Shown here one piece after another: positions 1 through 19,543 of a stretch of DNA of 20,477 nucleotides. The notes beneath the pieces were generated by a model, which worked only from the letters and a program-made list of their open reading frames with translations, was not told the DNA's origin and did no database searches. Every line of letters starts with the position of its first letter. The first letter of the stretch is position 1. This DNA is from a virus (taxonomy: Duplodnaviria > Heunggongvirae > Uroviricota > Caudoviricetes), in IMG/VR virus record IMGVR_UViG_2703718852_000002, positions 1 through 20,477 of that record. The stretch is one strand, 5' to 3'. The translations under genes were made by a program, and so were the position numbers.

Positions 1-1053
1 TTACGGGGTAATGCCAACCGCTGCCGCCACTTTGTCGCCACTTGGCAGCGTTGCCAGAGGATTGAAACGGAGCGCCGTTTCCAGATGATCCGGTGCCAGA
101 TGTGCGTAACGCATAGTCATTTTTATATCGTGGTGTCCGAGAATTTTTTGTAAGGCCAGAATGTTTCCACCCGACATCATGAAGTGCGCCGCAAACGTAT
201 GGCGCAGAACGTGTGTGAGTTGACCGCGAGGGAGCACGATAGACGTTTTTTCCATCACGGATAAAAATTGAAAATAGCAGTCTGTGAAGAAATTGAACCC
301 ATCAAGCGCCATGATCTCTTCGTAAAGCTCTTTACTGATAGGGATGCTTCTGTTTTTCTTCCCCTTCGTTCTTACAAAGGTAATTCGGTATTTGGTCACC
401 TGTGAACGAGTAAGATTTACGGCTTCTCGCCAGCGTGCGCCTGTGCTTAAGCATATCTTAACTACCAGTGCCAGAATTGGGTCCTGACGTTTGCAATCAG
501 CCAGTAATTCAACAATCTGCTCATGGGTAAGCCATGCCATCTCTTTTTCTGCGATGGTGAATTTTCGCATGTTCTCCAGTGGGTTCGGATACGACCATTC
601 GCCCAGGCGGGATAGTTCGCTAAAAACACTACTTAGATAGCTTTGCTCCAGGTTAATGGTGACCGGGCTTGCTCCTTTCTTCCATTTCTCGCTGAAGTAG
701 ATCTCACCTGTCAGGCGTTTATCTCGATAGTGGGCAAACATTTTAGAGGTTAGATCAGTTGCAAGGGGATTGCCCAGAGCGTCAACCATCAGCAGCAATT
801 TGTCATAGACATGCTGCCCAGCAGTCAGTGATTTACCATGTAGTTTGAACCATAGCTCAACCACGTCTTTCAGTGTTCGACGATCCACTGATTCACCTAG
901 CCAGGGCTTTGCTTCGGTTTCTTCCATCGTGTGACGCTCAAAAGCCAGTGCTTCGCCTTTGGTGGCGAATTGTTTACGCACACGACGCCCACTACGTCCG
1001 GCGGGGTAACATTCGCAAAGCCATTTTCCTGTGGTGAGTTTTCGTACAGCCAT
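1..1053 (-). CDS. int: Tyrosine integrase, P2/186 family
   Basis: Translation from MAVRKLTTGKW... is integrase-like, with a C-terminal catalytic region (LRHTFAAHF ... HHDIKMTMRYAHL). GGAGGG RBS lies 7 nt upstream of the ATG at 1051-1053. The ORF-track start at 1131 is judged an upstream in-frame extension. Stop codon is at 1-3. Confidence 0.9.
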   Translation of the reverse strand: MAVRKLTTGKWLCECYPAGRSGRRVRKQFATKGEALAFERHTMEETEAKPWLGESVDRRTLKDVVELWFKLHGKSLTAGQHVYDKLLLMVDALGNPLATDLTSKMFAHYRDKRLTGEIYFSEKWKKGASPVTINLEQSYLSSVFSELSRLGEWSYPNPLENMRKFTIAEKEMAWLTHEQIVELLADCKRQDPILALVVKICLSTGARWREAVNLTRSQVTKYRITFVRTKGKKNRSIPISKELYEEIMALDGFNFFTDCYFQFLSVMEKTSIVLPRGQLTHVLRHTFAAHFMMSGGNILALQKILGHHDIKMTMRYAHLAPDHLETALRFNPLATLPSGDKVAAAVGITP

Positions 1054-1241
1054 AAAAAATGCCCTCCAATAGAGAGCATTTTTACTGTATGTATAACCAG
1101 TGTCAATGTATGAAATCCTGCGACCATACATCTCACTGAAGCCATAATGAAGTAGGCTATTCTTTTTGCTATGTGATCATGTAACTTTTGCGGTTAACCT
1201 GTGGCTCATTTTTATTTTAGGCGCAGATATAAAAGCAAAAG

Positions 1242-1433
1242 TTATCGTGAGTTTTTAGTACAGATTTTTTTGGATTTACTAATAGTTCCATCATTGCAAA
1301 CGAATTTGCCATCAGAGGTACAGTGAGAAACACCTCCCTTTTTCCCTGAGCAGGGATAATTTCTAGCATAGGTAGCTAGTGGGTTTAATAACAAAGAACA
1401 TGACAAAACCACAAAAAATACCTTACCAAGCAT
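1242..1433 (-). CDS. Small exported cysteine-rich protein (63 aa) with predicted signal peptide; moron between cI and int
   Basis: ATG at 1431-1433 preceded by GGAGGA RBS. Hydrophobic N-terminus [23 protein letters not shown], then a 40-aa tail with 4 Cys. Region is AT-rich relative to int. Confidence 0.5.
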
Positions 1434-1448
1434 AATTTCCTCCCGGTA

Positions 1449-2018
1449 CTATTTAACATACTTGACTGTTAAACTTATAATTTTACCAATTATTTCAATG
1501 TCTTCTATCTTACATTCAAAGGCTCTGTTTCCACCCTCGACGAAGATTCTTCCACCGGGTAAACGAGTAATGTCACGGATCGTTATTTCGCCATCAATAC
1601 TTATTACCCATTTACCATCACGTATATCATCAAATTCCTTATCACAAATAAATTCAGAATTATTATCTGTGATTACAAAAAGATTCTTGAATGCCGACGG
1701 TAGAAATTCTCTATCGAAAATATAAAAACCGTCTTCACACAAGGCCCCATCAGATAATACATATTTAGCAACTTCCATAGTATTTGTATTACCTGAAGTT
1801 TGCTTTGAACCATGCCCGGTTGTGAGCCAATTAAGCGAGGTGCCTGTTTCAAGGGCGCACTGGATTACCCATTCTGCTGGGAATGAGTCACGCATGTAGC
1901 GTGTGGCGAGTGTACTTTTAGAGATTCCTAAATGATCGCACAACGCCTGTCGAGTCTTGAATCCATAAGCTTCTACCATGCGCTCTATGGCGCCTCGTCC
2001 GCCTTTCTCCAAATTCAT
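1449..2018 (-). CDS. cI: CI-type immunity repressor, phage 186 CI-like (about 189 aa)
   Basis: Size and position match 186 CI (192 aa), transcribed divergently from apl/cII and upstream of int. GGAG RBS lies 5 nt before the ATG at 2016-2018; the GTG at 2022-2024 is an alternative start. Confidence 0.8.
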   Translation of the reverse strand: MNLEKGGRGAIERMVEAYGFKTRQALCDHLGISKSTLATRYMRDSFPAEWVIQCALETGTSLNWLTTGHGSKQTSGNTNTMEVAKYVLSDGALCEDGFYIFDREFLPSAFKNLFVITDNNSEFICDKEFDDIRDGKWVISIDGEITIRDITRLPGGRIFVEGGNRAFECKIEDIEIIGKIISLTVKYVK

Positions 2019-2042
2019 GGTCACTCCAAGTGAACTTTTATC

Positions 2043-2914: not shown

Positions 2915-3115
2915 ATGCTGACGAAAGAACCATCATTTGCATCGCTGCTGGTTAAACAAAGCCCGGCAATGCATTACGGTCACGGCTGGATCATGGGGGA
3001 GGATGGTAAACGCTGGCATCCGTGCCGTTCACAAGATGAATTGCTGGCAGAACTATCTACGAAAAAACGGGGGAACAAATGGCTATTGAAGGCACTGCGG
3101 CGACTGTTCCATTAA
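2915..3115 (+). CDS. Small protein at the 186 fil position (possible Fil-like cell-division inhibitor)
   Basis: ATG at 2915 preceded by TGAGGTG RBS that overlaps the cII stop. Position matches 186 fil. Sequence-level assignment is from memory and uncertain. Confidence 0.4.
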   Translation: MLTKEPSFASLLVKQSPAMHYGHGWIMGEDGKRWHPCRSQDELLAELSTKKRGNKWLLKALRRLFH

Positions 3116-3420
3116 GCCCCGGTGAACGCCTGAATGGACTTAATCACATTGCGGAGTTAAGGGCGAAAGTTTTTGGCCTGAATATTGAGTCAGAGCTTGA
3201 GCGGTTTATTAAAGATATGCGTGATTCACGGGATATTAATAGCGAACAAAATAAACGGGCACTGGCTGCCATATTCTTTATGGCAAAAATTCCAGCTGAA
3301 CGTCATAGCATCAGCATTAATGAGCTGACCACTGACGAAAAGCGGGAGTTGATTAAAGCAATGAATCATTTTCGTGCAGTGGTGAGCTTATTTCCCAGAC
3401 GGCTAACCATGCCGAATTAA
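3079..3420 (+). CDS. Hypothetical early-operon protein (113 aa)
   Basis: ATG at 3079 with G-rich RBS. Lies in the early rightward operon between cII and gene A. Function not recognisable from sequence. Confidence 0.5.
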   Translation: MAIEGTAATVPLSPGERLNGLNHIAELRAKVFGLNIESELERFIKDMRDSRDINSEQNKRALAAIFFMAKIPAERHSISINELTTDEKRELIKAMNHFRAVVSLFPRRLTMPN

Positions 3421-7213: not shown

Positions 7214-7307
7214 TTACGCGGGTTAACAATTCGTGCTCTTAATAATACCAGGCATATCAGGCTGATGAACGTAAAAAAACGTTTTACATCAGTAAGATTA
7301 TTATATA

Positions 7308-7323
7308 CTGTAAATATAAACAG
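7308..7323. promoter_or_regulatory. LexA box (SOS operator) CTGTAAATATAAACAG upstream of the tum/DinI-like operon
   Basis: Exact CTGT-N8-ACAG palindrome with an AT-rich centre and TA/TG flanks (tactgtaaatataaacagtg). Overlaps candidate -10 TATACT at 7304-7309; candidate -35 TTTACA at 7283-7288. Confidence 0.7.
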
Positions 7324-7366
7324 TGGTTATACATACAGTATTGCGTGTGGTGTCATAGGAGGAAAG

Positions 7367-7555
7367 ATGCAGGACTATTTTTTGGAGTCTTTGAAGCTCC
7401 AGCGCATTGATTTTTTTCTTAAGCTTGTAGCGGCTAGTGAGTGTAGTGATGAAGAGAAGGGGCTGGCTCTGCAGTGGGTTTCTGAATTGACTGATGAACT
7501 CATGGCAAAAATCAGAACCCACGAATACAACCGCTCAATGGATGTCATCAGCTGA
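7367..7555 (+). CDS. Hypothetical 62-aa protein, first gene of the SOS-controlled operon (possible antirepressor N-terminal module)
   Basis: ATG at 7367 with a strong AGGAGG RBS, about 45 nt downstream of the LexA box. The ORF-track start at 7265 would include the operator and is rejected. Confidence 0.5.
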   Translation: MQDYFLESLKLQRIDFFLKLVAASECSDEEKGLALQWVSELTDELMAKIRTHEYNRSMDVIS

Positions 7556-7565
7556 GGTGACTTTT

Positions 7566-7799
7566 ATGCGCATTGAAATAATGATCGATAAAGAGCAGAA
7601 GATTAGCCAGTCTACCCTGGACGCCCTTGAATCCGAGCTTTACCGCAATCTGCGCCCCCTGTATCCCAAAACGGTAATTCGCATTCGCAAAGGTAGCTCT
7701 AACGGTGTGGAACTAACCGGACTGCAACTGGACGAAGAAAGAAAACAAGTGATGAAAATTATGCAGAAGGTGTGGGAAGACGACAGCTGGCTGCATTAA
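7566..7799 (+). CDS. DinI-family protein (77 aa), as in the C-terminal part of 186 Tum
   Basis: MRIEIMIDKEQ... aligns by eye with E. coli DinI (MRIEVTIAK...; conserved W-E/D-D..W near the C-terminus). AGGTGA RBS upstream. Sits under the LexA-box promoter. Confidence 0.8.
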   Translation: MRIEIMIDKEQKISQSTLDALESELYRNLRPLYPKTVIRIRKGSSNGVELTGLQLDEERKQVMKIMQKVWEDDSWLH

Positions 7800-8196: not shown

Positions 8197-8667
8197 ATGT
8201 CTATCGAGGAAAAATTTTTTAGTGATATCGATTTAAAAGATCCGTTTTTTAACAGCCTAAGAGCTGATTATGAAGGATTTGATGTTTGGTTTCTCTCAAA
8301 AGGTAAAAATAAGGCGTTTGTATCACGTAATGAATTAGGTGAAATCGATGGTTTTCTCTATTTGAAAATAGAAGATGAAGAGTTGAGTGATATGACTCCA
8401 ACGTTTCCAAAGATGAAGCGAGTAAAGCTTGGCACATTTAAAATCGATGCTCATGGAACCAAACTTGGAGAGCGTTTTATTAGAATTATGTTTCAATTTG
8501 CTATGAGAAACAAACTAAAAGAAGTATATGTTACTATATTTGATAAGCATTCAGGATTAATTCGCTTATTAACTAAATATGGTTTTGTTTTAAAGGCGAG
8601 GAAAAATCTTTCTACGATTAATGGGCAAGAAGGTGTATACTTTAAAAACTTGGTATGGAAGGAGTAA
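8197..8667 (+). CDS. Cargo protein 1 (156 aa), unknown function; weak GNAT-like resemblance in the C-terminal half
   Basis: ATG at 8197 with AGAAGAGG RBS. AT-rich codon usage. Segment KLGERFIRIMFQFAMRNKLKEVYVTIFDKHSGLIRLLTKYGFVL is reminiscent of an acetyltransferase core but does not fit the canonical motif cleanly. Confidence 0.6.
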   Translation: MSIEEKFFSDIDLKDPFFNSLRADYEGFDVWFLSKGKNKAFVSRNELGEIDGFLYLKIEDEELSDMTPTFPKMKRVKLGTFKIDAHGTKLGERFIRIMFQFAMRNKLKEVYVTIFDKHSGLIRLLTKYGFVLKARKNLSTINGQEGVYFKNLVWKE

Positions 8668-8670
8668 AAA

Positions 8671-9252
8671 ATGAGCTATGCTAATTATCCCTTAGTCAAA
8701 TTGCAGGGGAGAAATTATTTATTAAGTATTTATCCTGCATGGCATACACGTCTTTTCCCTGAGTCAAAACTCCACAATGAGAGTGCTGGTATCATCGCTG
8801 ATATATCACATACCAACAGTATTGAAAAAGTATACTTAACAAAAATGCATGGGGTAGCCAGCCTAAAGCCTGGAGATAATTTGCTTATTTATCGTACTTC
8901 AGATGGACAAGGTCCAGCTCGGTTTAGATCTGTTGCAACTTCAGTGTGTGTGGTTCAGGAAATTAAAGATATTCACGATTTCTTAACTTATGAGGAATTT
9001 AAGAATTACTGTGAACCTTATAGCGTTTTTGATGAAGATGAGTTACAGCTTCTATATATGAAAAAAAATTATCCGATAATTATACGGTTTACTTATAATT
9101 TCCCTTTGGAAAAAAGAGTTATTCGTGATGAAATCATGAATATTACAGGTTATACCAATAGTGATTATTGGGGTTTTTTACCACTAACTGATTCAGCATT
9201 TAAGCAGATTGTCTTACAGGGAGGTGTTGATGAAAGTTTTATTATCGATTAA
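8671..9252 (+). CDS. Cargo protein 2 (193 aa), unknown function
   Basis: ATG at 8671, 3 nt after the stop of cargo 1, with GGAAGGAG RBS. Overlaps the start of cargo 3. No recognisable motif. Confidence 0.6.
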   Translation: MSYANYPLVKLQGRNYLLSIYPAWHTRLFPESKLHNESAGIIADISHTNSIEKVYLTKMHGVASLKPGDNLLIYRTSDGQGPARFRSVATSVCVVQEIKDIHDFLTYEEFKNYCEPYSVFDEDELQLLYMKKNYPIIIRFTYNFPLEKRVIRDEIMNITGYTNSDYWGFLPLTDSAFKQIVLQGGVDESFIID

Positions 9253-9601
9253 GCCAGAGTATGCAGAGAGTATACTTTCTGGTAAAAAAAAATATGAGTT
9301 TCGGAAAAATATTTTTAGAAATAAAAATGTTGATACGATAGTTATTTACGCAACGATGCCGGTTGGCAAAGTAATAGGTGAATTTAAAGTAGGAGATATT
9401 CTTGCTCTATCCCCTTCAGAATTGTGGGATAAAACGAAAGCTCATGCAGGAATTACACATTCTTTTTTTAAAGATTATTTCCACCAAAGAGAAAAGGCTT
9501 TTGCTATTTCCATCAAAAGCCCTAAAAGATATAAATTCCCTGTCGACTTAAATGAGTTGATTCCCGGCGGCGTCGCCCCACAGTCTTATCGTTATTTATA
9601 A
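9230..9601 (+). CDS. Cargo protein 3: ASCH-domain (PUA-like) protein (123 aa)
   Basis: ATG at 9230 preceded by GGAGGTG RBS. N-terminal MKVLLSIKPEYAESILSGKKKYEFRK carries the ASCH signature GxKxxExR seen in E. coli YqfB (GRKTITIR). Confidence 0.65.
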   Translation: MKVLLSIKPEYAESILSGKKKYEFRKNIFRNKNVDTIVIYATMPVGKVIGEFKVGDILALSPSELWDKTKAHAGITHSFFKDYFHQREKAFAISIKSPKRYKFPVDLNELIPGGVAPQSYRYL

Positions 9602-10141
9602 TGTTGTCTGGGCATGTTTCTTAACCATGCCCAGTTTTTCTAGGGCAATAGATAAATCGTTTGTTGTTGGGGATTCTAAGATAATTAATGGTACATTGAT
9701 TTTATTTGTAACATATTTTGCGTTTTCTCTTTCAGCTTCCATCAGCTTATTTAAATCATAAGTAATATCACTCCCATCTCGTTTCATTATTCGTTCTCTA
9801 ATTGTATCGGGAGACTCCTCAACTAAAATTACTCCATCTAGCCCCATTTCCTCAAATACTTCTTGCTTGAGAACTTCAATATCTCCATTTTTATTTATTA
9901 AGGTAAAATGACCATCCAATAAAATATTGGATACCTTTAACTTTAATGCATTAAGTGCCGTAAGTAATATTGATTGGTTTTTATCAGGTGTGGCCGTTAA
10001 CTTACTGTTATCAAATTTAATATTAGAATTATTTTTTATAAGTTCGCTTGCGCTTACATGAGTTACCCCGAAATCATCTTTTGCAAATGAACACAAGTAA
10101 CCTTTGCCTACACCATGAACACCTGCTATGAAAATTAACAT
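9596..10141 (-). CDS. Cargo protein 4: small P-loop NTPase / nucleotide-kinase-like protein (181 aa)
   Basis: Walker A motif at the N-terminus (IFIAGVHGVGKGYL) and Walker B-like hhhhDG (ILLDGHF). ATG at 10139-10141 with GGAGG RBS. Convergent with cargo 3; the 3' ends overlap by 6 nt. Confidence 0.7.
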   Translation of the reverse strand: MLIFIAGVHGVGKGYLCSFAKDDFGVTHVSASELIKNNSNIKFDNSKLTATPDKNQSILLTALNALKLKVSNILLDGHFTLINKNGDIEVLKQEVFEEMGLDGVILVEESPDTIRERIMKRDGSDITYDLNKLMEAERENAKYVTNKINVPLIILESPTTNDLSIALEKLGMVKKHAQTTL

Positions 10142-10206
10142 AGTATTACCTCCGTTTATTTATTTATGTTAGAATGTTATAGCCTTAGCATAGTAGAGGA
10201 TAGAGC

Positions 10207-10584
10207 ATGAAGTTTCAAGCTATATCGATTTTGACTCCAGCGGTAGAAAATATTATAAATGGTTCTAAATCTATCGAAATACGGTCGTGGTATCCTGAAA
10301 CGATACCATTAAAAAACGTCATTCTTGTTCAGAATGATAAATATCTTAAAAATCAAAGCGATATAGATCATGGGGTGGCTATGGCTATTGTCGATTTTGT
10401 TTCAGTTAGAAATTGGTCATATGAGGATTACTTAAAACAAAACCAAGAAACAACTCTTAATAAGCCTTGGTCTCCAGGTTATTATGTGTGGGAAATTAAA
10501 AATGTTAGAATTTTAAAAAAATCTATTCCTTGTGTGGCGAGGAAAGGTATTTATACAATAGATTTAAATATGGATTATATATAA
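10207..10584 (+). CDS. Cargo protein 5: second ASCH-domain (PUA-like) protein (125 aa)
   Basis: ATG at 10207 with GAGGA RBS. Motif NGSKSIEIRSW fits the ASCH GxKxxExR signature. Divergent from cargo 4. Confidence 0.65.
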   Translation: MKFQAISILTPAVENIINGSKSIEIRSWYPETIPLKNVILVQNDKYLKNQSDIDHGVAMAIVDFVSVRNWSYEDYLKQNQETTLNKPWSPGYYVWEIKNVRILKKSIPCVARKGIYTIDLNMDYI

Positions 10585-10595
10585 GGTATTGTGAG

Positions 10596-11387
10596 ATGTG
10601 TGGTGCCATTCTTCGAAATATTAAGCGTTATGCCATTATTTATTCACTGTTGTTTTTGGCTTTTATTTTAATGCTGATAGTGTTTGTTAGCTATGTTTGT
10701 AAATTTGGAGTGTATTCATGGAGTGATTCCGTAGAGAAATGGGGACAGTTTGGCGATTATATTGGTGGTGTACTGAATCCTGCTCTGGCCTTTATCTCTA
10801 TCATGCTTGTTTGTTTCACACTATATTCTACATCTAGGCAGTCATCTATTCAGTCATTCGAGTCTGTGTTATTTGAGTTACTAAGATTTCATAAAGATAA
10901 CTTATCAGAAATTAAAACAACGTATTCAGATGGAAAAGTGTATGTAGGACGGGAGGCTCTTTCATTATACATTACCGAAGTGAAGTTTAACCTACTTAAT
11001 ATTGTGGATGATTCACTTCCTTTGGATGAAAGGTTAGAGCTTTCAGTTAATATGGTTTATCTGGAAGGTGACAATTTTGCGAATGTGGGACATTATTTCA
11101 GGAATATTTACCATATTTTTAAACATATCAATGACTCTAACTATTTGACTGAGAAAGAAAAAACCAAGTATGCGAAATTAGTTAGAGCACAAATATCTTC
11201 TATAGAATCTGGCGCGATGCTATTAAATGGTTTTTCATCGGTAGGAAAGCCTGCCAAGAAATTTATTGAAAAATATTCTCTCCTTCAGGGGTTTAGTTTA
11301 AGTAAGGAATTCAAGCAGCAATTACATGATTTAGGTGCCTTAAAATTATACGATGACGTTGCTTATGAGGATAAAAAAGGGCATTAA
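10596..11387 (+). CDS. Cargo protein 6: membrane protein with two N-terminal TM helices and a cytoplasmic C-terminal domain (263 aa); candidate effector
   Basis: ATG at 10596, 12 nt after the cargo 5 stop. Hydrophobic segments IIYSLLFLAFILMLIVFVSYV and LNPALAFISIMLVCFTLYS. The ORF-track start at 10530 is TTG inside cargo 5 and is rejected. Confidence 0.6.
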   Translation: MCGAILRNIKRYAIIYSLLFLAFILMLIVFVSYVCKFGVYSWSDSVEKWGQFGDYIGGVLNPALAFISIMLVCFTLYSTSRQSSIQSFESVLFELLRFHKDNLSEIKTTYSDGKVYVGREALSLYITEVKFNLLNIVDDSLPLDERLELSVNMVYLEGDNFANVGHYFRNIYHIFKHINDSNYLTEKEKTKYAKLVRAQISSIESGAMLLNGFSSVGKPAKKFIEKYSLLQGFSLSKEFKQQLHDLGALKLYDDVAYEDKKGH

Positions 11388-12230
11388 ATGCCCTTATCTT
11401 GGTCAAGGATGTAGTCATTAAATGACACAATATTTTGATTTATCCAGGTGTTTAGCTCAACTAGTCTTTTCTGCAAAGGAACCAACTCATTTCTGACAAA
11501 AACCTTCGCGGCTTTTTCCACATCCCCAAACCCTCCAACATTATTAGGCATAATCCCCATCATTTGCGGCGGCACGCGGTGCGCAGCCATCATGTCATCA
11601 CGGCTCACGTTCTTGATATTCAGAAACTCATCCTTCGCCGCAACTTCTGACAATGGGATAATCTGAAGCCCGTCCTTTTTGCCGTTAGGCGAGTACATAA
11701 ACAGGTTGCGGAAGTTGCCCGGACCTTTGGCGCTTTTCATCGCATTGCGGAGGTTGTTCACATCTTCCTGGTTCTGCGCGGCATCGGTCATGTACATGAT
11801 GAAGCCTGCATGACTGCCGTTAATGTAATACTTCCGGCGGAACAGCGTGGCGGACTCGTTGAGCAGGGCTGACGGAATGGCAGAAAGATAACCTGGCAGG
11901 CCGTAGATCTCCTGGTTGATGTCCGGTTCCATCAGATGAAAAATGCTGCCTTTCGTGAACTGATACGGCTGGGTTGTCATACCGTATTGCACAAACCAGT
12001 AGGTATCCAGGTCTAACCCGCGTCGGGTATATTTTGCCAGAGCAGGCTCAAGGGCGATAACTTCACCGAAGCGGTTCGTGCGTTTCTCCAGGTAGGCGTT
12101 ACCAAATACCAGATAGTCCTGCACAAAACGTGAAAAAGCCTGCTGGCTGAGCAGCGGGTGAGGGATGTAGGTACTGGTCAGAATGTTGCATTTTACTGCA
12201 ATCGGTGACCGGAAGCAGAGCCGGTAATGG
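11384..12230 (-). pseudogene. Q: Portal protein gene remnant (P2 gpQ-like), 5' part deleted
   Basis: The C-terminal ~270 aa of the 317-aa ORF read as a P2-family portal (...AAHRVPPQMMGIMPNNVGGFG...FNDYILDQDKGI). The N-terminal ~30 aa of the ORF are antisense to the J remnant and not portal-like. Upstream boundary is approximate. Confidence 0.6.
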
Positions 12231-12439
12231 CAGCGGCAAAAGCCAGTCTGCAGAAGTACATTGCCAGCCAGACGAGGCTTGGTCGGGATATTCGCCGTAG
12301 CGCCATCTTTGCTGCTCTGCATGTTGAGGGTGTTCAACGTGTGGAACTGGCTTCTCCGCTGGCGGATGTGGTCCTGAACAAAACACAGGCGGCATCATGT
12401 ACGCAGTGGAGCGTAACCAACGGAGGAACGGATGAATAG
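12227..12439 (+). pseudogene. J: Baseplate protein J gene remnant (3' end only)
   Basis: A 70-aa ORF ending 5 nt into gene I, where the gpJ C-terminus would sit. No full-length J upstream; abuts the portal remnant. Confidence 0.45.
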
Positions 12440-17857: not shown

Positions 17858-19543
17858 TTATCCTAATCCTGGCCATACCATGACGATGATTGTCCCTGCC
17901 AGCGTCAGCAGGACGTTGGCGATTGCATAGGTGCCCGCATAGCCCAGCGCCGGGATGTTACTGCGAGCTGTATCACTGATGATCTCCATTGCCGGCGCGC
18001 AGGTACGTGCGCCCATCATTGCGCCGAACAACAGCGCGCGGTTCATTCGCAATACATAAGCACCGAACAAGAAACAGATAACCACGGGCACCAGACTGAC
18101 AATCAATCCGGCAATCAACATCTGACCGCCAATCGCGCCCAGGCCGTTATTAATACCGCTACCGGCGCTCAGACCAACGCCTGCCATAAACACCATCAAG
18201 CCGAACTCTTTCACCATGCTTAATGCACCCTGCGGAATGTAACCGAAGGTCGGGTGGTTAGCACGCATAAAGCCCAGCATAATTCCGGCGAATAACAACC
18301 CGGCAGCGTTCCCCATGCCGAAACTGAATGTGCTGAACTGGAAGGTGATCATCCCGATCATCAGCCCAATAACAAAGAAGGCGCAGAATGCCAGCAGGTC
18401 AGTGACCTGGCTGTGAATCGAGATAAAGCCGATGCGATCGGCGATGGTTTTTACGCGGCGGGCATCGCCGCTGACTTGTAAAACGTCACCTTTGTTAAGC
18501 ACGACGTTGTCATCTATCGGCATCTCAATCTGGCTACGAATGACGCGGTTAAGGAAGCAACCGTGATCGGTCAACTTCAGTTGTGCGAGACGTTTACCTA
18601 CAGCGTTATGGTTTTTAACGACCACTTCTTCAGTGACGATACGCATGTCGAGAAGGTCACGATCGAAAACTTCTTTACCGTTACGGAAGCTGGGATCGAG
18701 TCGGGCATGGGCGTCGGGATAGCCTACCAACGCTATTTCATCGCCCATTTGTAGCACGGCATCACCGTCTGGATTTGCCAGAATCCCGTTACGTCGAATA
18801 CGTTCAATGTAGCAGCCGGTTTGTCGATAAATACCCAGTTCACGCAGATTTTTGCCGTCGGTCCAGGCCACCAGTTCCGGGCCGACGCGATAGGCGCGGA
18901 TCACCGGTAAATAAACCTTACGGTTGGCATCAGTGTCCAGGCCACGTTCGCGGGCGATTTGCTGGGCGCTGGTCTGTAAGTCCTGATGCTGCAATTTCGG
19001 CAAGTAACGCGCACCAACAATCAAACTCACCAGACCGATTAAATAGGTTAAGGCATACCCGAGGCTCAGATTATCCAGTGCCAGTGAGAGCTGCCTGCTT
19101 TCCATGCCGGAATGACGCAGTGTATCGCCAGCACCGACCAGAACCGGTGTCGACGTCATAGAGCCTGCTAACATACCGGCCGTCAGGCCAATATCCCAGC
19201 CAAACAGCTTACCTAACCCTAAGGCGATCACCAGCGCACTGCCAACCATCACCAGTGCTAACATTAGGTAATTTTTCCCATCGCGAAAAAAAATGGAAAA
19301 AAAGTTCGGTCCGGCTTCGACCCCGACGCAGAAAATAAACAGCATAAAGCCAAGATTAAGCGCATCGGTGTTAATGCTGAAATGTTGTTGGCCTAATAAC
19401 AGCGATACGACTAAAACGCCAATGGAATTACCCAGTTGGATCGAACCAAGTCGTAACTTTCCGAGACATAGCCCAAGCGCGAGGACCACAAATAATAACA
19501 GAATGTAATTCCCATTTAACAATTCGGCGACGTTTATATTCAC
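17858..19543 (-). CDS. ybjL: Putative transport protein YbjL (561 aa)
   Basis: Full-length ORF recognised as E. coli YbjL ([33 protein letters not shown]...), with N- and C-terminal membrane domains and central soluble repeats. Confidence 0.85.

Follow-up and report, generated by a model that had tools for sequence, protein, structure and literature searches.

A YdcA-family gene as optional cargo between the repressor and integrase genes of a P2/186-type prophage

The DNA stretch analyzed here comprises positions 1 to 20,477 of the IMG/VR virus record IMGVR_UViG_2703718852_000002 (Caudoviricetes) and is referred to, at its full length, as the window. Its left end is the lysogeny module of a P2/186-type prophage, encoded on the minus strand, in which a 63-codon open reading frame (ORF), ydcA, is located between the repressor gene cI and the integrase gene int (Table 1). 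Our analysis leaves hardly any doubt that ydcA is a genuine, already annotated gene encoding a YdcA-family pre-protein and evolving under purifying selection. That the prophage carries ydcA as optional cargo, linked to one cI immunity allele, is also well supported, and in a broad sense the gene can be called a moron. The explanation that we consider the best, and moderately likely as a whole, is that this optional cI-linked cargo provides an exported basic domain, which would act in the cell envelope and serve superinfection exclusion. The finding is of an ordinary kind, a small accessory gene of a known family behind a prophage repressor, and this position is a classic site of lysogenic-conversion functions, making such a finding unsurprising. 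What the analysis adds is the link of the family to repressor-adjacent positions, two leads to its possible function (the Legionella protein Dis2 and secreted nucleases), and a composite leader upstream of int.

The initial annotation had described an ORF of 63 amino acids (aa) on the same strand as cI, 15 nt behind it and upstream of int, and these coordinates were confirmed. The cI stop codon is at 1449-1451 and the ydcA start codon ATG at 1433-1431, the 15-nt gap between them containing the ribosome-binding site (RBS) GGGAGG (1444-1439), which ends 5 nt 5' of the ATG and is unchanged in all eight diverged copies. The product matches the NCBIfam equivalog model NF007463 with 114.6 bits (E 1.3e-33), exceeding the curated cut-off of 93, and phrog_6000 (3.1e-34); for a protein identical to it, Pfam family PF27300 is listed among precomputed matches of a large protein collection. 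The copy of Pfam that was searched with the product does not contain PF27300 and yielded one chance match (GULLO2-like, E 0.076). In the recent RefSeq annotation the product is called "YdcA family protein" (WP_001513672.1).

Comparison with the copy of E. coli B revealed 11 synonymous and 2 non-synonymous differences in ydcA (dS 0.31, dN 0.014, dN/dS 0.04). Among 26 near-identical variants, five sites vary in ydcA, four of them synonymously, versus 24 in a spacer of equal length. Between species, synonymous differences in the mature domain are saturated (pS 0.87), while pN is 0.14-0.19. The poor conservation that the initial annotation had named as a sign of a spurious ORF was not observed, the mature domain being nearly invariant. 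The cI-ydcA-int stretch is present (at least 80% coverage) in 592 of the 5426 complete E. coli genomes, about 1 in 9, among them the E. coli B strains AS19, NEBExpress Iq, and B-DolR as well as a laboratory stock of E. coli HS, which is known to host the P2-like phage DuoHS (PMC12055606). YdcA is among the small proteins of E. coli K-12 that are still without a function.

The call of a signal peptide in YdcA is a rule-based reading, made from hydrophobicity and the (-3,-1) rule. The N-terminus consists of MLGK, with one lysine, a 12-residue hydrophobic core (Kyte-Doolittle about 2.5), and NPLATYA, which places T-Y-A at positions -3 to -1; the predicted cleavage is after Ala23, between LATYA and RNYPC. 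The mature part would have 40 aa, four cysteines and a net charge of +7, a fifth cysteine being situated inside the signal peptide. In alignments of 30, 57, and 149 members, C28, C38, C46, and C58 show either no variation or conservation of at least 90%; the alanine at -1 never changes among the 30 sequences and reaches at least 90% conservation among the 57. In the 30-57 aligned homologs the N-termini are divergent in sequence yet constantly hydrophobic, while the mature domain changes very little from Enterobacterales to Moraxella and Herbaspirillum. The signal-peptide-like N-terminus and the four-cysteine mature region of the initial annotation were thus corroborated by the hydrophobicity profile, the (-3,-1) rule, and the homologs. 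Export of YdcA to the periplasm is very probable, and the four mature cysteines most likely form two disulfides; the signal peptide and the disulfides of Dis2, discussed below, point to this location and to these bonds. Two other kinds of small exported protein were considered and rejected. A lipoprotein of the Llp or Cor type would need a lipobox, but L-(A/S)-(G/A)-C is absent from YdcA and the first mature cysteine is at +5. For a secreted bacteriocin-like peptide, accompanying export or immunity genes would be expected, but the loci examined contained none, and a Sec signal by itself takes a protein no farther than the periplasm.

YdcA of E. coli K-12 (b1419; PRK10040 / NF007462-4, PF27300, phrog_6000), a 57-aa protein with a signal sequence and a predicted periplasmic location (PMC11340327), belongs to the same family and is 57% identical to the prophage protein. 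In both, a signal peptide is followed by the pattern PCSGxKGG(V/I)SHC...F(V/I)CNDG(T/S)xSxSKKxC with its four cysteines. Unlike the K-12 protein, the prophage YdcA has an NCBIfam equivalog of its own (NF007463), and its gene is prophage-borne and directly follows cI, whereas K-12 ydcA is placed between rydC and hokB. Against the related model NF007462, which we take to be the model of K-12-type YdcA, the prophage protein scored 68.5 bits, below the cut-off of 118. An exhaustive search extended the family to 444 clusters at 50% identity, some members having two or three tandem domains; the tandem arrangement of YdcA domains in P0079, P0080, and P0082 recalls the two lobes of Dis2.

The status of ydcA as optional cargo follows from comparison of the slot between cI and int. 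In phage 186, the cI stop and the int start abut, with no gene between them. In sister E. coli prophages with the same int, homology to the window ends at about position 1112 (about 1141 in one variant). Integrases at least 99% identical to that of the window were found in 80 IMG/VR loci; ydcA is present in 45 of these, being the sole gene of the slot in 40, and the other 35 contain 1-2.3 kb between cI and int in its place. The alternative contents (loci L003-L006 and L178) are a KAP-family NTPase, either accompanied by a ydcA homolog or not; a second CI-like protein together with a KAP NTPase; a 320-aa membrane-protein-like gene after a longer CI; and a DUF4041/T5orf172 protein. Six proteins of the alternative cargo were tested, and three match families of PADLOC-DB 2.0, the KAP NTPases corresponding to PDC-S20 and the DUF4041/T5orf172 protein to PD-Lambda-1. 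The check for presence or absence in related 186-like prophages, proposed in the initial annotation, thus shows ydcA to be either present or replaced between conserved neighbors, and the suggestion of a moron-like cargo gene holds. Interchangeability with defense genes in the repressor-integrase slot offers a genetic handle on ydcA.

Since ydcA consistently adjoins the cI gene of one immunity group, cI and ydcA travel together. When region 1000-2100 was compared with deposited phages by megablast, the match was limited to the int-proximal 112 nt and occurred in Klebsiella phages; hence, the cI-ydcA module is carried by no cultured phage in that collection. The literature searched contained nothing on phage-borne YdcA.

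A defense hotspot between cI and int has been described in Vibrio P2-related (K139-like) phages (PMC9122126; Rousset et al., 2022), and a hotspot 'between integrase and primase' in P2-related phages (NAR 2026); the term YdcA does not appear in the main text of PMC13586616, the single paper searched for it. The slot is the same here, and PDC-S20 and PD-Lambda-1 occupy it in sister E. coli prophages, but the occupant differs, as ydcA is not a recognized defense gene. The repressor-adjacent mosaic region is known for collecting morons (PMC7067206). Like ydcA, the rexAB genes of lambda and bstA of Salmonella phage BTP1 are situated directly downstream of cI, and they are read from the cI promoter in lysogens. 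These, however, are abortive-infection systems that belong to lambdoid phages and are cytoplasmic or located in the membrane, whereas the ydcA product is a predicted exported 40-aa peptide of a P2/186-type phage, and its co-transcription with the repressor, unlike theirs, is deduced from position.

A scan for promoters and terminators detected no such site between cI and ydcA. Given this and the gap of only 15 nt, ydcA must ride on the cI message; its co-transcription with cI is likely, and expression in lysogens along with cI would be the natural reading of the layout. A moron in the classical sense has its own flanking promoter and terminator. Here the 15-nt gap contains no promoter-like site, and the hairpin 3' of the ydcA stop is not followed by a U tract, so that ydcA has no terminator of its own and would borrow the cI transcript instead. 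Transcription would start at pL in lysogens and at pE during establishment of lysogeny, and lysogens should therefore make YdcA continuously. At the hairpin just 5' of the int start, the cI-ydcA transcript is probably terminated or else silenced at the level of translation.

The association with repressors extends beyond this prophage group. In species-representative genomes, the order cI-ydcA-int was found in Escherichia, in Yersinia alsatica, Y. aldovae, and Y. nurmii, in Haemophilus parainfluenzae, and in a Pasteurellaceae metagenome-assembled genome. The Yersinia prophages have a cI product 38% and an Int 47% identical to those of the window, and a cI-ydcA gap of 47 nt; in H. parainfluenzae and the Pasteurellaceae genome the cI product is about 32% identical. 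In Buttiauxella ydcA also follows cI, and int was not detected nearby. Haemophilus phages HP2 and S2 encode a 60-aa YdcA homolog whose ATG begins with the final base of the stop codon of cI; in HP2 (NC_003315.1) this ORF, intact and with a signal peptide, is at about 2486-2668 of the record, on the minus strand (2944-3126 of locus L001), and it is unannotated in the records of both phages. The YdcA family is thereby tied to repressor-adjacent positions in three P2-like lineages. Across 80 species, the commonest upstream neighbor of ydcA is a phage CI repressor (7 of 80), followed by cytochrome b561 (6 of 80), the latter representing the chromosomal cybB-ydcA locus, as in K-12. Other homologs are located in the tail-gene cluster of Moraxella siphophages, beside Mu Gam at one locus and beside Mu GemA at one locus that may be a different one, and on plasmids, both small ones of Acinetobacter and megaplasmids of rhizobia. 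Judged by these neighborhoods, ydcA behaves as a promiscuous accessory gene of mobile elements. One of the plasmids, Acinetobacter pittii pApiMCR53a (3916 bp; L179), is a five-gene mobilizable plasmid of the MOBQ type, in which the YdcA homolog (728-904) directly follows a traD-like gene.

As to the function, we propose that the Sec-type signal peptide (residues 1-23) is cleaved, which would leave a 40-residue, strongly basic periplasmic domain, likely with two disulfides. The target of YdcA in the cell envelope would be either a polyanion outside the cytoplasm, DNA being the most plausible one, or a machine associated with the outer membrane, and the lysogen would thereby be protected against incoming foreign DNA, that is, by superinfection exclusion. 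Small exported superinfection-exclusion proteins include the periplasmic Sp of T4 and the outer-membrane lipoproteins Llp of T5 and Cor of phi80 and N15, all of them tiny, signal-peptide-bearing phage proteins that work from the periplasmic side on the incoming phage. YdcA is similarly tiny and has a predicted signal peptide, but shows no sequence relation to them and has no lipobox. Among the 149 best cluster representatives of the family, the YdcA domain is followed by Endonuclease_NS in three, by SNase in one, and by a PLD-like domain in one, and secreted nucleases, of three unrelated folds, are the only catalytic domains fused to YdcA in this set; two further members contain a PBCV basic adaptor domain. 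Taken with the strong positive charge, these fusions to nucleases suggest, on thin evidence, a small extracytoplasmic module that may bind DNA or another polyanion. Proteins P0114, P0169, P0194, and P0210 have the arrangement of a signal peptide, a YdcA domain, and then an SNase, Endonuclease_NS, or PLD-like nuclease.

A role of YdcA in exclusion or DNA handling is accordingly put forward as a tentative possibility, and several observations weigh against it. Nuclease fusions were found in just 5 of the 149 representatives. The 63-aa YdcA matched no PADLOC-DB 2.0 family at E ≤ 0.01. Members of the family also occur in chromosomal loci (cybB-ydcA, K-12), on small and large plasmids, and in Moraxella phage tail clusters; given this spread, a general function in the envelope has the same likelihood as exclusion of phages. 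Moreover, an argument from location is weak for a gene of 63 codons.

The strongest competitor to envelope exclusion, possible but on balance doubtful, is that YdcA is a host-fitness or envelope-stress factor like its chromosomal counterpart, involved for example in tolerance to acid or organic acids, with no role against phages or foreign DNA; the prophage would then just bring an additional copy of benefit to the lysogen. Deletion of ydcA in E. coli W causes sensitivity to 300 mM 3-hydroxypropionate, and the gene was reported to be acid-induced under YdcI (PMC7642389). The 57% identity to K-12 YdcA, the frequency of the family in non-phage loci and on plasmids, and the lack of a PADLOC match fit this view. 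However, the phage-borne type forms a separate NCBIfam equivalog, the slot is otherwise filled by defense-type genes, the nuclease fusions indicate nucleic acids rather than acid stress, and the 3-hydroxypropionate phenotype comes from a single report without a mechanism.

A further lead came from structure. [quoted passage not shown] It is also the top Foldseek match of the AlphaFold model of YdcA (probability 0.95, 39% identity, E 0.13), the model having a mean pLDDT of 78 and values above 85 across the mature core. The Dis2 segment CCSKMGGINYC..RLVCNNGFYS can be aligned with YdcA, and Dis2 is its best and only plausible relative of solved structure. Both proteins are disulfide-rich and exported, as predicted in the case of YdcA, and Dis2 is located beside the outer membrane. 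Dis2, however, has two lobes and is part of the T4SS cap, whereas YdcA is a single 40-aa domain, and the ORFs of the window that were examined include no T4SS gene. Once the signal peptide is left out, the profile match drops to E 0.0035 and repeats of the LDL receptor score close behind; homology of YdcA and Dis2 is therefore rated probable, not established. The authors of the Dis2 structure found no structural relative (PMC8486379), and Dis2 is regarded as Legionellales-specific (PMC12716638).

From this resemblance, YdcA could correspond to Dis2 with one lobe instead of two and serve some machine that spans the outer membrane (a T4SS, secretin, or pilus) as an accessory subunit or as a modulator, although we consider this improbable. 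Dis2 leads both the sequence-profile and the Foldseek results, it is composed of two similar lobes with five disulfides near the outer membrane (PMC8486379), and YdcA proteins with two and three repeats exist; in addition, a UniRef cluster is named 'Conjugal transfer protein', and the 3.9-kb MOBQ plasmid carries its homolog beside traD. On the other hand, the similarity to Dis2 is marginal, T4SS genes are absent from the prophage and from most contexts examined, Dis2 is dispensable for assembly and function of its machine (PMC12716638), and the UniRef name is probably an automatic annotation. A role in conjugation or a T4SS was also considered from the plasmid side and rejected: the plasmid matches are mostly to small plasmids of Acinetobacter and megaplasmids of rhizobia, and no T4SS pattern was noted among them, a single plasmid locus having been inspected. 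Together, the nuclease fusions and the Dis2 resemblance yield testable ideas, namely binding of DNA or of envelope machines.

The 188-nt spacer between ydcA and int, taken as RNA, folds far better than shuffled sequences (z -4.8), three hairpins being responsible. One of them is formed by the 10-bp inverted repeat that the initial annotation had reported across the ydcA stop codon, and which is present as described: the arms taacttttgc (1182-1191) and gcaaaagtta (1235-1244) pair without a mismatch, three of the ten pairs being G-C. The suggestion that it could affect int expression, in contrast, was not supported. Perfect inverted repeats of at least 10 bp with a loop of at most 60 nt are expected 1.3 times in the whole window, and five (three distinct) were found; when the local 395 nt are shuffled, about 3% of the shuffles contain such a repeat, which makes this one mildly non-random, though picked post hoc. 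Its hairpin has a folding energy of -15.3 kcal/mol (z -3.0), but in the version of E. coli B the folding does not surpass that of shuffles (z -1.4). Two lineages, E. coli B/ACN002 and 806883, have two arm substitutions each, and all four break pairs. In 23 distinct sequences no compensatory change was found, the covariation score equals that of shuffles, and five pairs have broken cells. In locus L004 the segment with the repeat is replaced, while ydcA and int are kept and a KAP NTPase follows ydcA. An Rfam scan of 900-2200 gave only a chance miRNA-shaped match (E 0.39). Because of the broken pairs, the lack of covariation and of a U tract, and the replacement in L004, the repeat is not regarded as a conserved regulator of int. 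That it is nevertheless a functional RNA element (a stabilizer, processing site, or attenuator) setting int expression is very improbable: the perfection of the repeat, its local rarity, the stability of the hairpin, and some C-to-U changes that preserve G-U pairs speak for such an element, but the pair-breaking substitutions, the absence of any both-sided change, the missing U tract and Rfam match, and the far better conservation of the int-proximal elements at 1054-1131 largely refute it. Least of all is ydcA a chance reading frame or decaying remnant, for although the ORF is short, AT-rich, and without an assigned function, its curated family match above the cut-off, the low dN/dS, intact copies in the hundreds, and homologs in alpha-, beta-, and gamma-proteobacteria already refute this, leaving it a negligible chance.

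The AT-richness noted in the initial annotation is real, ydcA having a GC content of 0.36, but it is not specific to the ORF, since the low-GC tract also takes in the spacer to int (0.36) and the C-terminal half of cI (0.33); the N-terminal half of cI and int have 0.47 and 0.48. The low-GC block crosses a domain boundary within cI (GC 0.33 at 1449-1800, versus 0.47 in the region of the N-terminal DNA-binding domain, 1800-2024), and this points to ydcA and the C-terminal domain of cI having a mosaic origin together.

The approximately 80 nt upstream of int (1054-1131) are part of the conserved int module, being kept behind every cargo type examined, and the same leader design is found in Klebsiella phages and Yersinia prophages. 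At the edge of this module there is a pair of inverted heptamers resembling the CII operator annotated in the phage 186 record, ATGTTTG-N13-CAAACAT, which is situated at about -35 to -62 of the activated promoter; the heptamers of the window differ from it by one symmetric change per half-site and a spacer shorter by one base. Sites of the form ATGTWTG-N12/13-CAWACAT occur only twice in the window, at 1106-1131 and at the cII start (2398-2424), with 0.00 expected, and the cII-start copy corresponds to the 186 pE site. Upstream of int, the Yersinia prophages have the exact 186 form ATGTTTG-N13-CAAACAT. The CII protein of the window is 69% identical to that of 186.

The promoter-like site behind these heptamers has a perfect -35 box, TTGACA (1106-1101). 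Its spacer contains an SOS-box-like palindrome, CACTGGTTATACATACAGTA (1083-1102), which matches the LexA consensus at 16 of 20 positions (18 of 20 in the Yersinia copies); CTG and CAG are retained in all 34 distinct variants, while the center varies. The motif ACTG-N10-CAGT was found twice in the window against 0.17 expected. A 17-mer of this box, TGGTTATACATACAGTA, is repeated exactly at 7324-7340, next to a near-consensus SOS box, TACTGTAAATATAAACAGTG, at 7306-7325 on the plus strand, which shares one base with the adjoining GTG-N10-CAG copy (to 7340). This site is placed after a replication gene and upstream of a small ORF (ATG at 7369, phrog_698) and a DinI-like ORF (7494-7799), and we take the 7306-7340 region to be the probable counterpart of the SOS (tum) operon of phage 186. 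In the literature searched, no LexA-controlled int promoter has been described for P2-like phages.

Between the promoter-like site and int there is a terminator-like hairpin, whose 3' arm includes the int RBS GGAGGG (1062-1067) and whose U6 tract ends at the int ATG (1053). It is 100% paired in 23 sequences, and in other lineages its stems differ with pairing kept (GCUCUC/GAGGGC, GCCCUC/GAGGGC, GUCCUC/GAGGAC, CCCAAG/CUUGAGG). A covariation test of the three spacer hairpins on close relatives gave zero compensatory changes for any helix; as these relatives are too little diverged for covariation, support for the int hairpin comes from the comparison across lineages. A strict terminator scan did not flag it.

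Hence int appears to have its own promoter, and with a promoter-like leader and a terminator-like hairpin 5' of int, cI-ydcA and int may be separate transcription units. The initial description of ydcA as lying within a cI-int operon was therefore right about its place directly behind cI on the same strand, but it did not take account of this leader. A start site about 7 nt after the -10-like box would lie within the 5' arm of the hairpin; consequently only read-through transcripts from cI-ydcA would form the hairpin and be terminated or translationally masked, while transcripts from the int promoter would keep the RBS free. In lambda, where CII activates integrase expression (PMC7708051), the CII-activated promoter pI is likewise separate and located directly upstream of int, and the CII-operator-like repeat at about -35 to -60 of the int leader resembles that design. 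The two show no sequence relation, and the SOS-box-like palindrome in the spacer and the RBS-sequestering hairpin distinguish the leader described here. If confirmed, this leader would show 186-like phages retaining control of the integrase while exchanging the cargo between cI and int.

Joined with the leads on the protein, the int leader gives rise to a broader and unlikely reading, in which YdcA would be an unrecognized extracytoplasmic, disulfide-stabilized module binding DNA or polyanions, expressed by phages against DNA entry, with int uncoupled from cI. Bacteria would join this module to secreted nucleases and build it into the T4SS cap, while P2/186-type and other temperate phages would express it constitutively from the repressor transcript. 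Its targets would be DNA crossing the periplasm from a superinfecting phage, in conjugation, or in transformation. A composite promoter, in which a CII operator is combined with a LexA box, would govern the int gene, and the terminator hairpin would hide the int RBS only on read-through RNA.

Table 1. Coordinates of the lysogeny genes and of the sequence elements between cI and int in the window.
Feature	Position	Strand	Basis or remark
int, tyrosine integrase gene (P2/186 type)	1..1053	minus	Pfam Int_N and Phage_integrase; RefSeq annotation
Terminator-like hairpin, 13 pairs (1055-1083), into U6 tract (1054-1059)	1054..1083	minus	-21.1 kcal/mol, z -5.9
int promoter-like site: -35 TTGACA (1106-1101), 17-nt spacer, -10 AAAAAT (1083-1078)	1078..1106	minus	Promoter scan, 10/12
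SOS-box-like CTG-N10-CAG in promoter spacer	1100-1085 (20-mer 1102-1083)	minus	Comparison with LexA consensus
Inverted heptamers ATGTATG-N12-CATACAT	1106..1131	minus	Phage 186 CII operator-like; edge of conserved int module
Inverted repeat, weak AT-rich hairpin	1182..1244 (arms 1182-1191, 1235-1244)	minus	Overlaps ydcA stop; no U tract
ydcA, 63-codon ORF	1242..1433	minus	Between cI and int
Mature YdcA domain (predicted), codons 24-63 and stop	1242..1364	minus	Matches to NF007463, phrog_6000, PF27300
ydcA signal peptide, predicted Sec type, codons 1-23	1365..1433	minus	Hydrophobicity profile, (-3,-1) rule
GGGAGG ribosome-binding site of ydcA	1439..1444	minus	Read from sequence; within 15-nt gap between cI and the ORF
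cI repressor gene, 186 type	1449..2024 (RefSeq start: ATG at 2018)	minus	Pfam Phage_CI_repr 2.8e-33, Phage_CI_C 2.7e-27; annotated as phage repressor protein CI
apl-like gene	2144-2365	plus	Divergent from cI-ydcA-int
cII	2392-2907	plus	Divergent from cI-ydcA-int

Further candidates for accessory genes were noted elsewhere in the window. Region 8197-11387, which extends from the SOS operon to the portal gene (11384-12337, minus strand), contains several non-core ORFs, with acetyltransferase-like phrog_13728/6345, phrog_30943, phrog_3193, and phrog_8999, as well as a thymidylate-kinase-like ORF on the opposite strand (9596-10141). This region is the classical P2 cargo and defense hotspot between gpA and gpQ. 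Finally, a 561-aa ORF at 17858-19543 (minus strand) matches phrog_4489 over its full length and is encoded opposite to the ORFs at about 12.4-17.3 kb, which we presume to be late genes; it may be another cargo gene.

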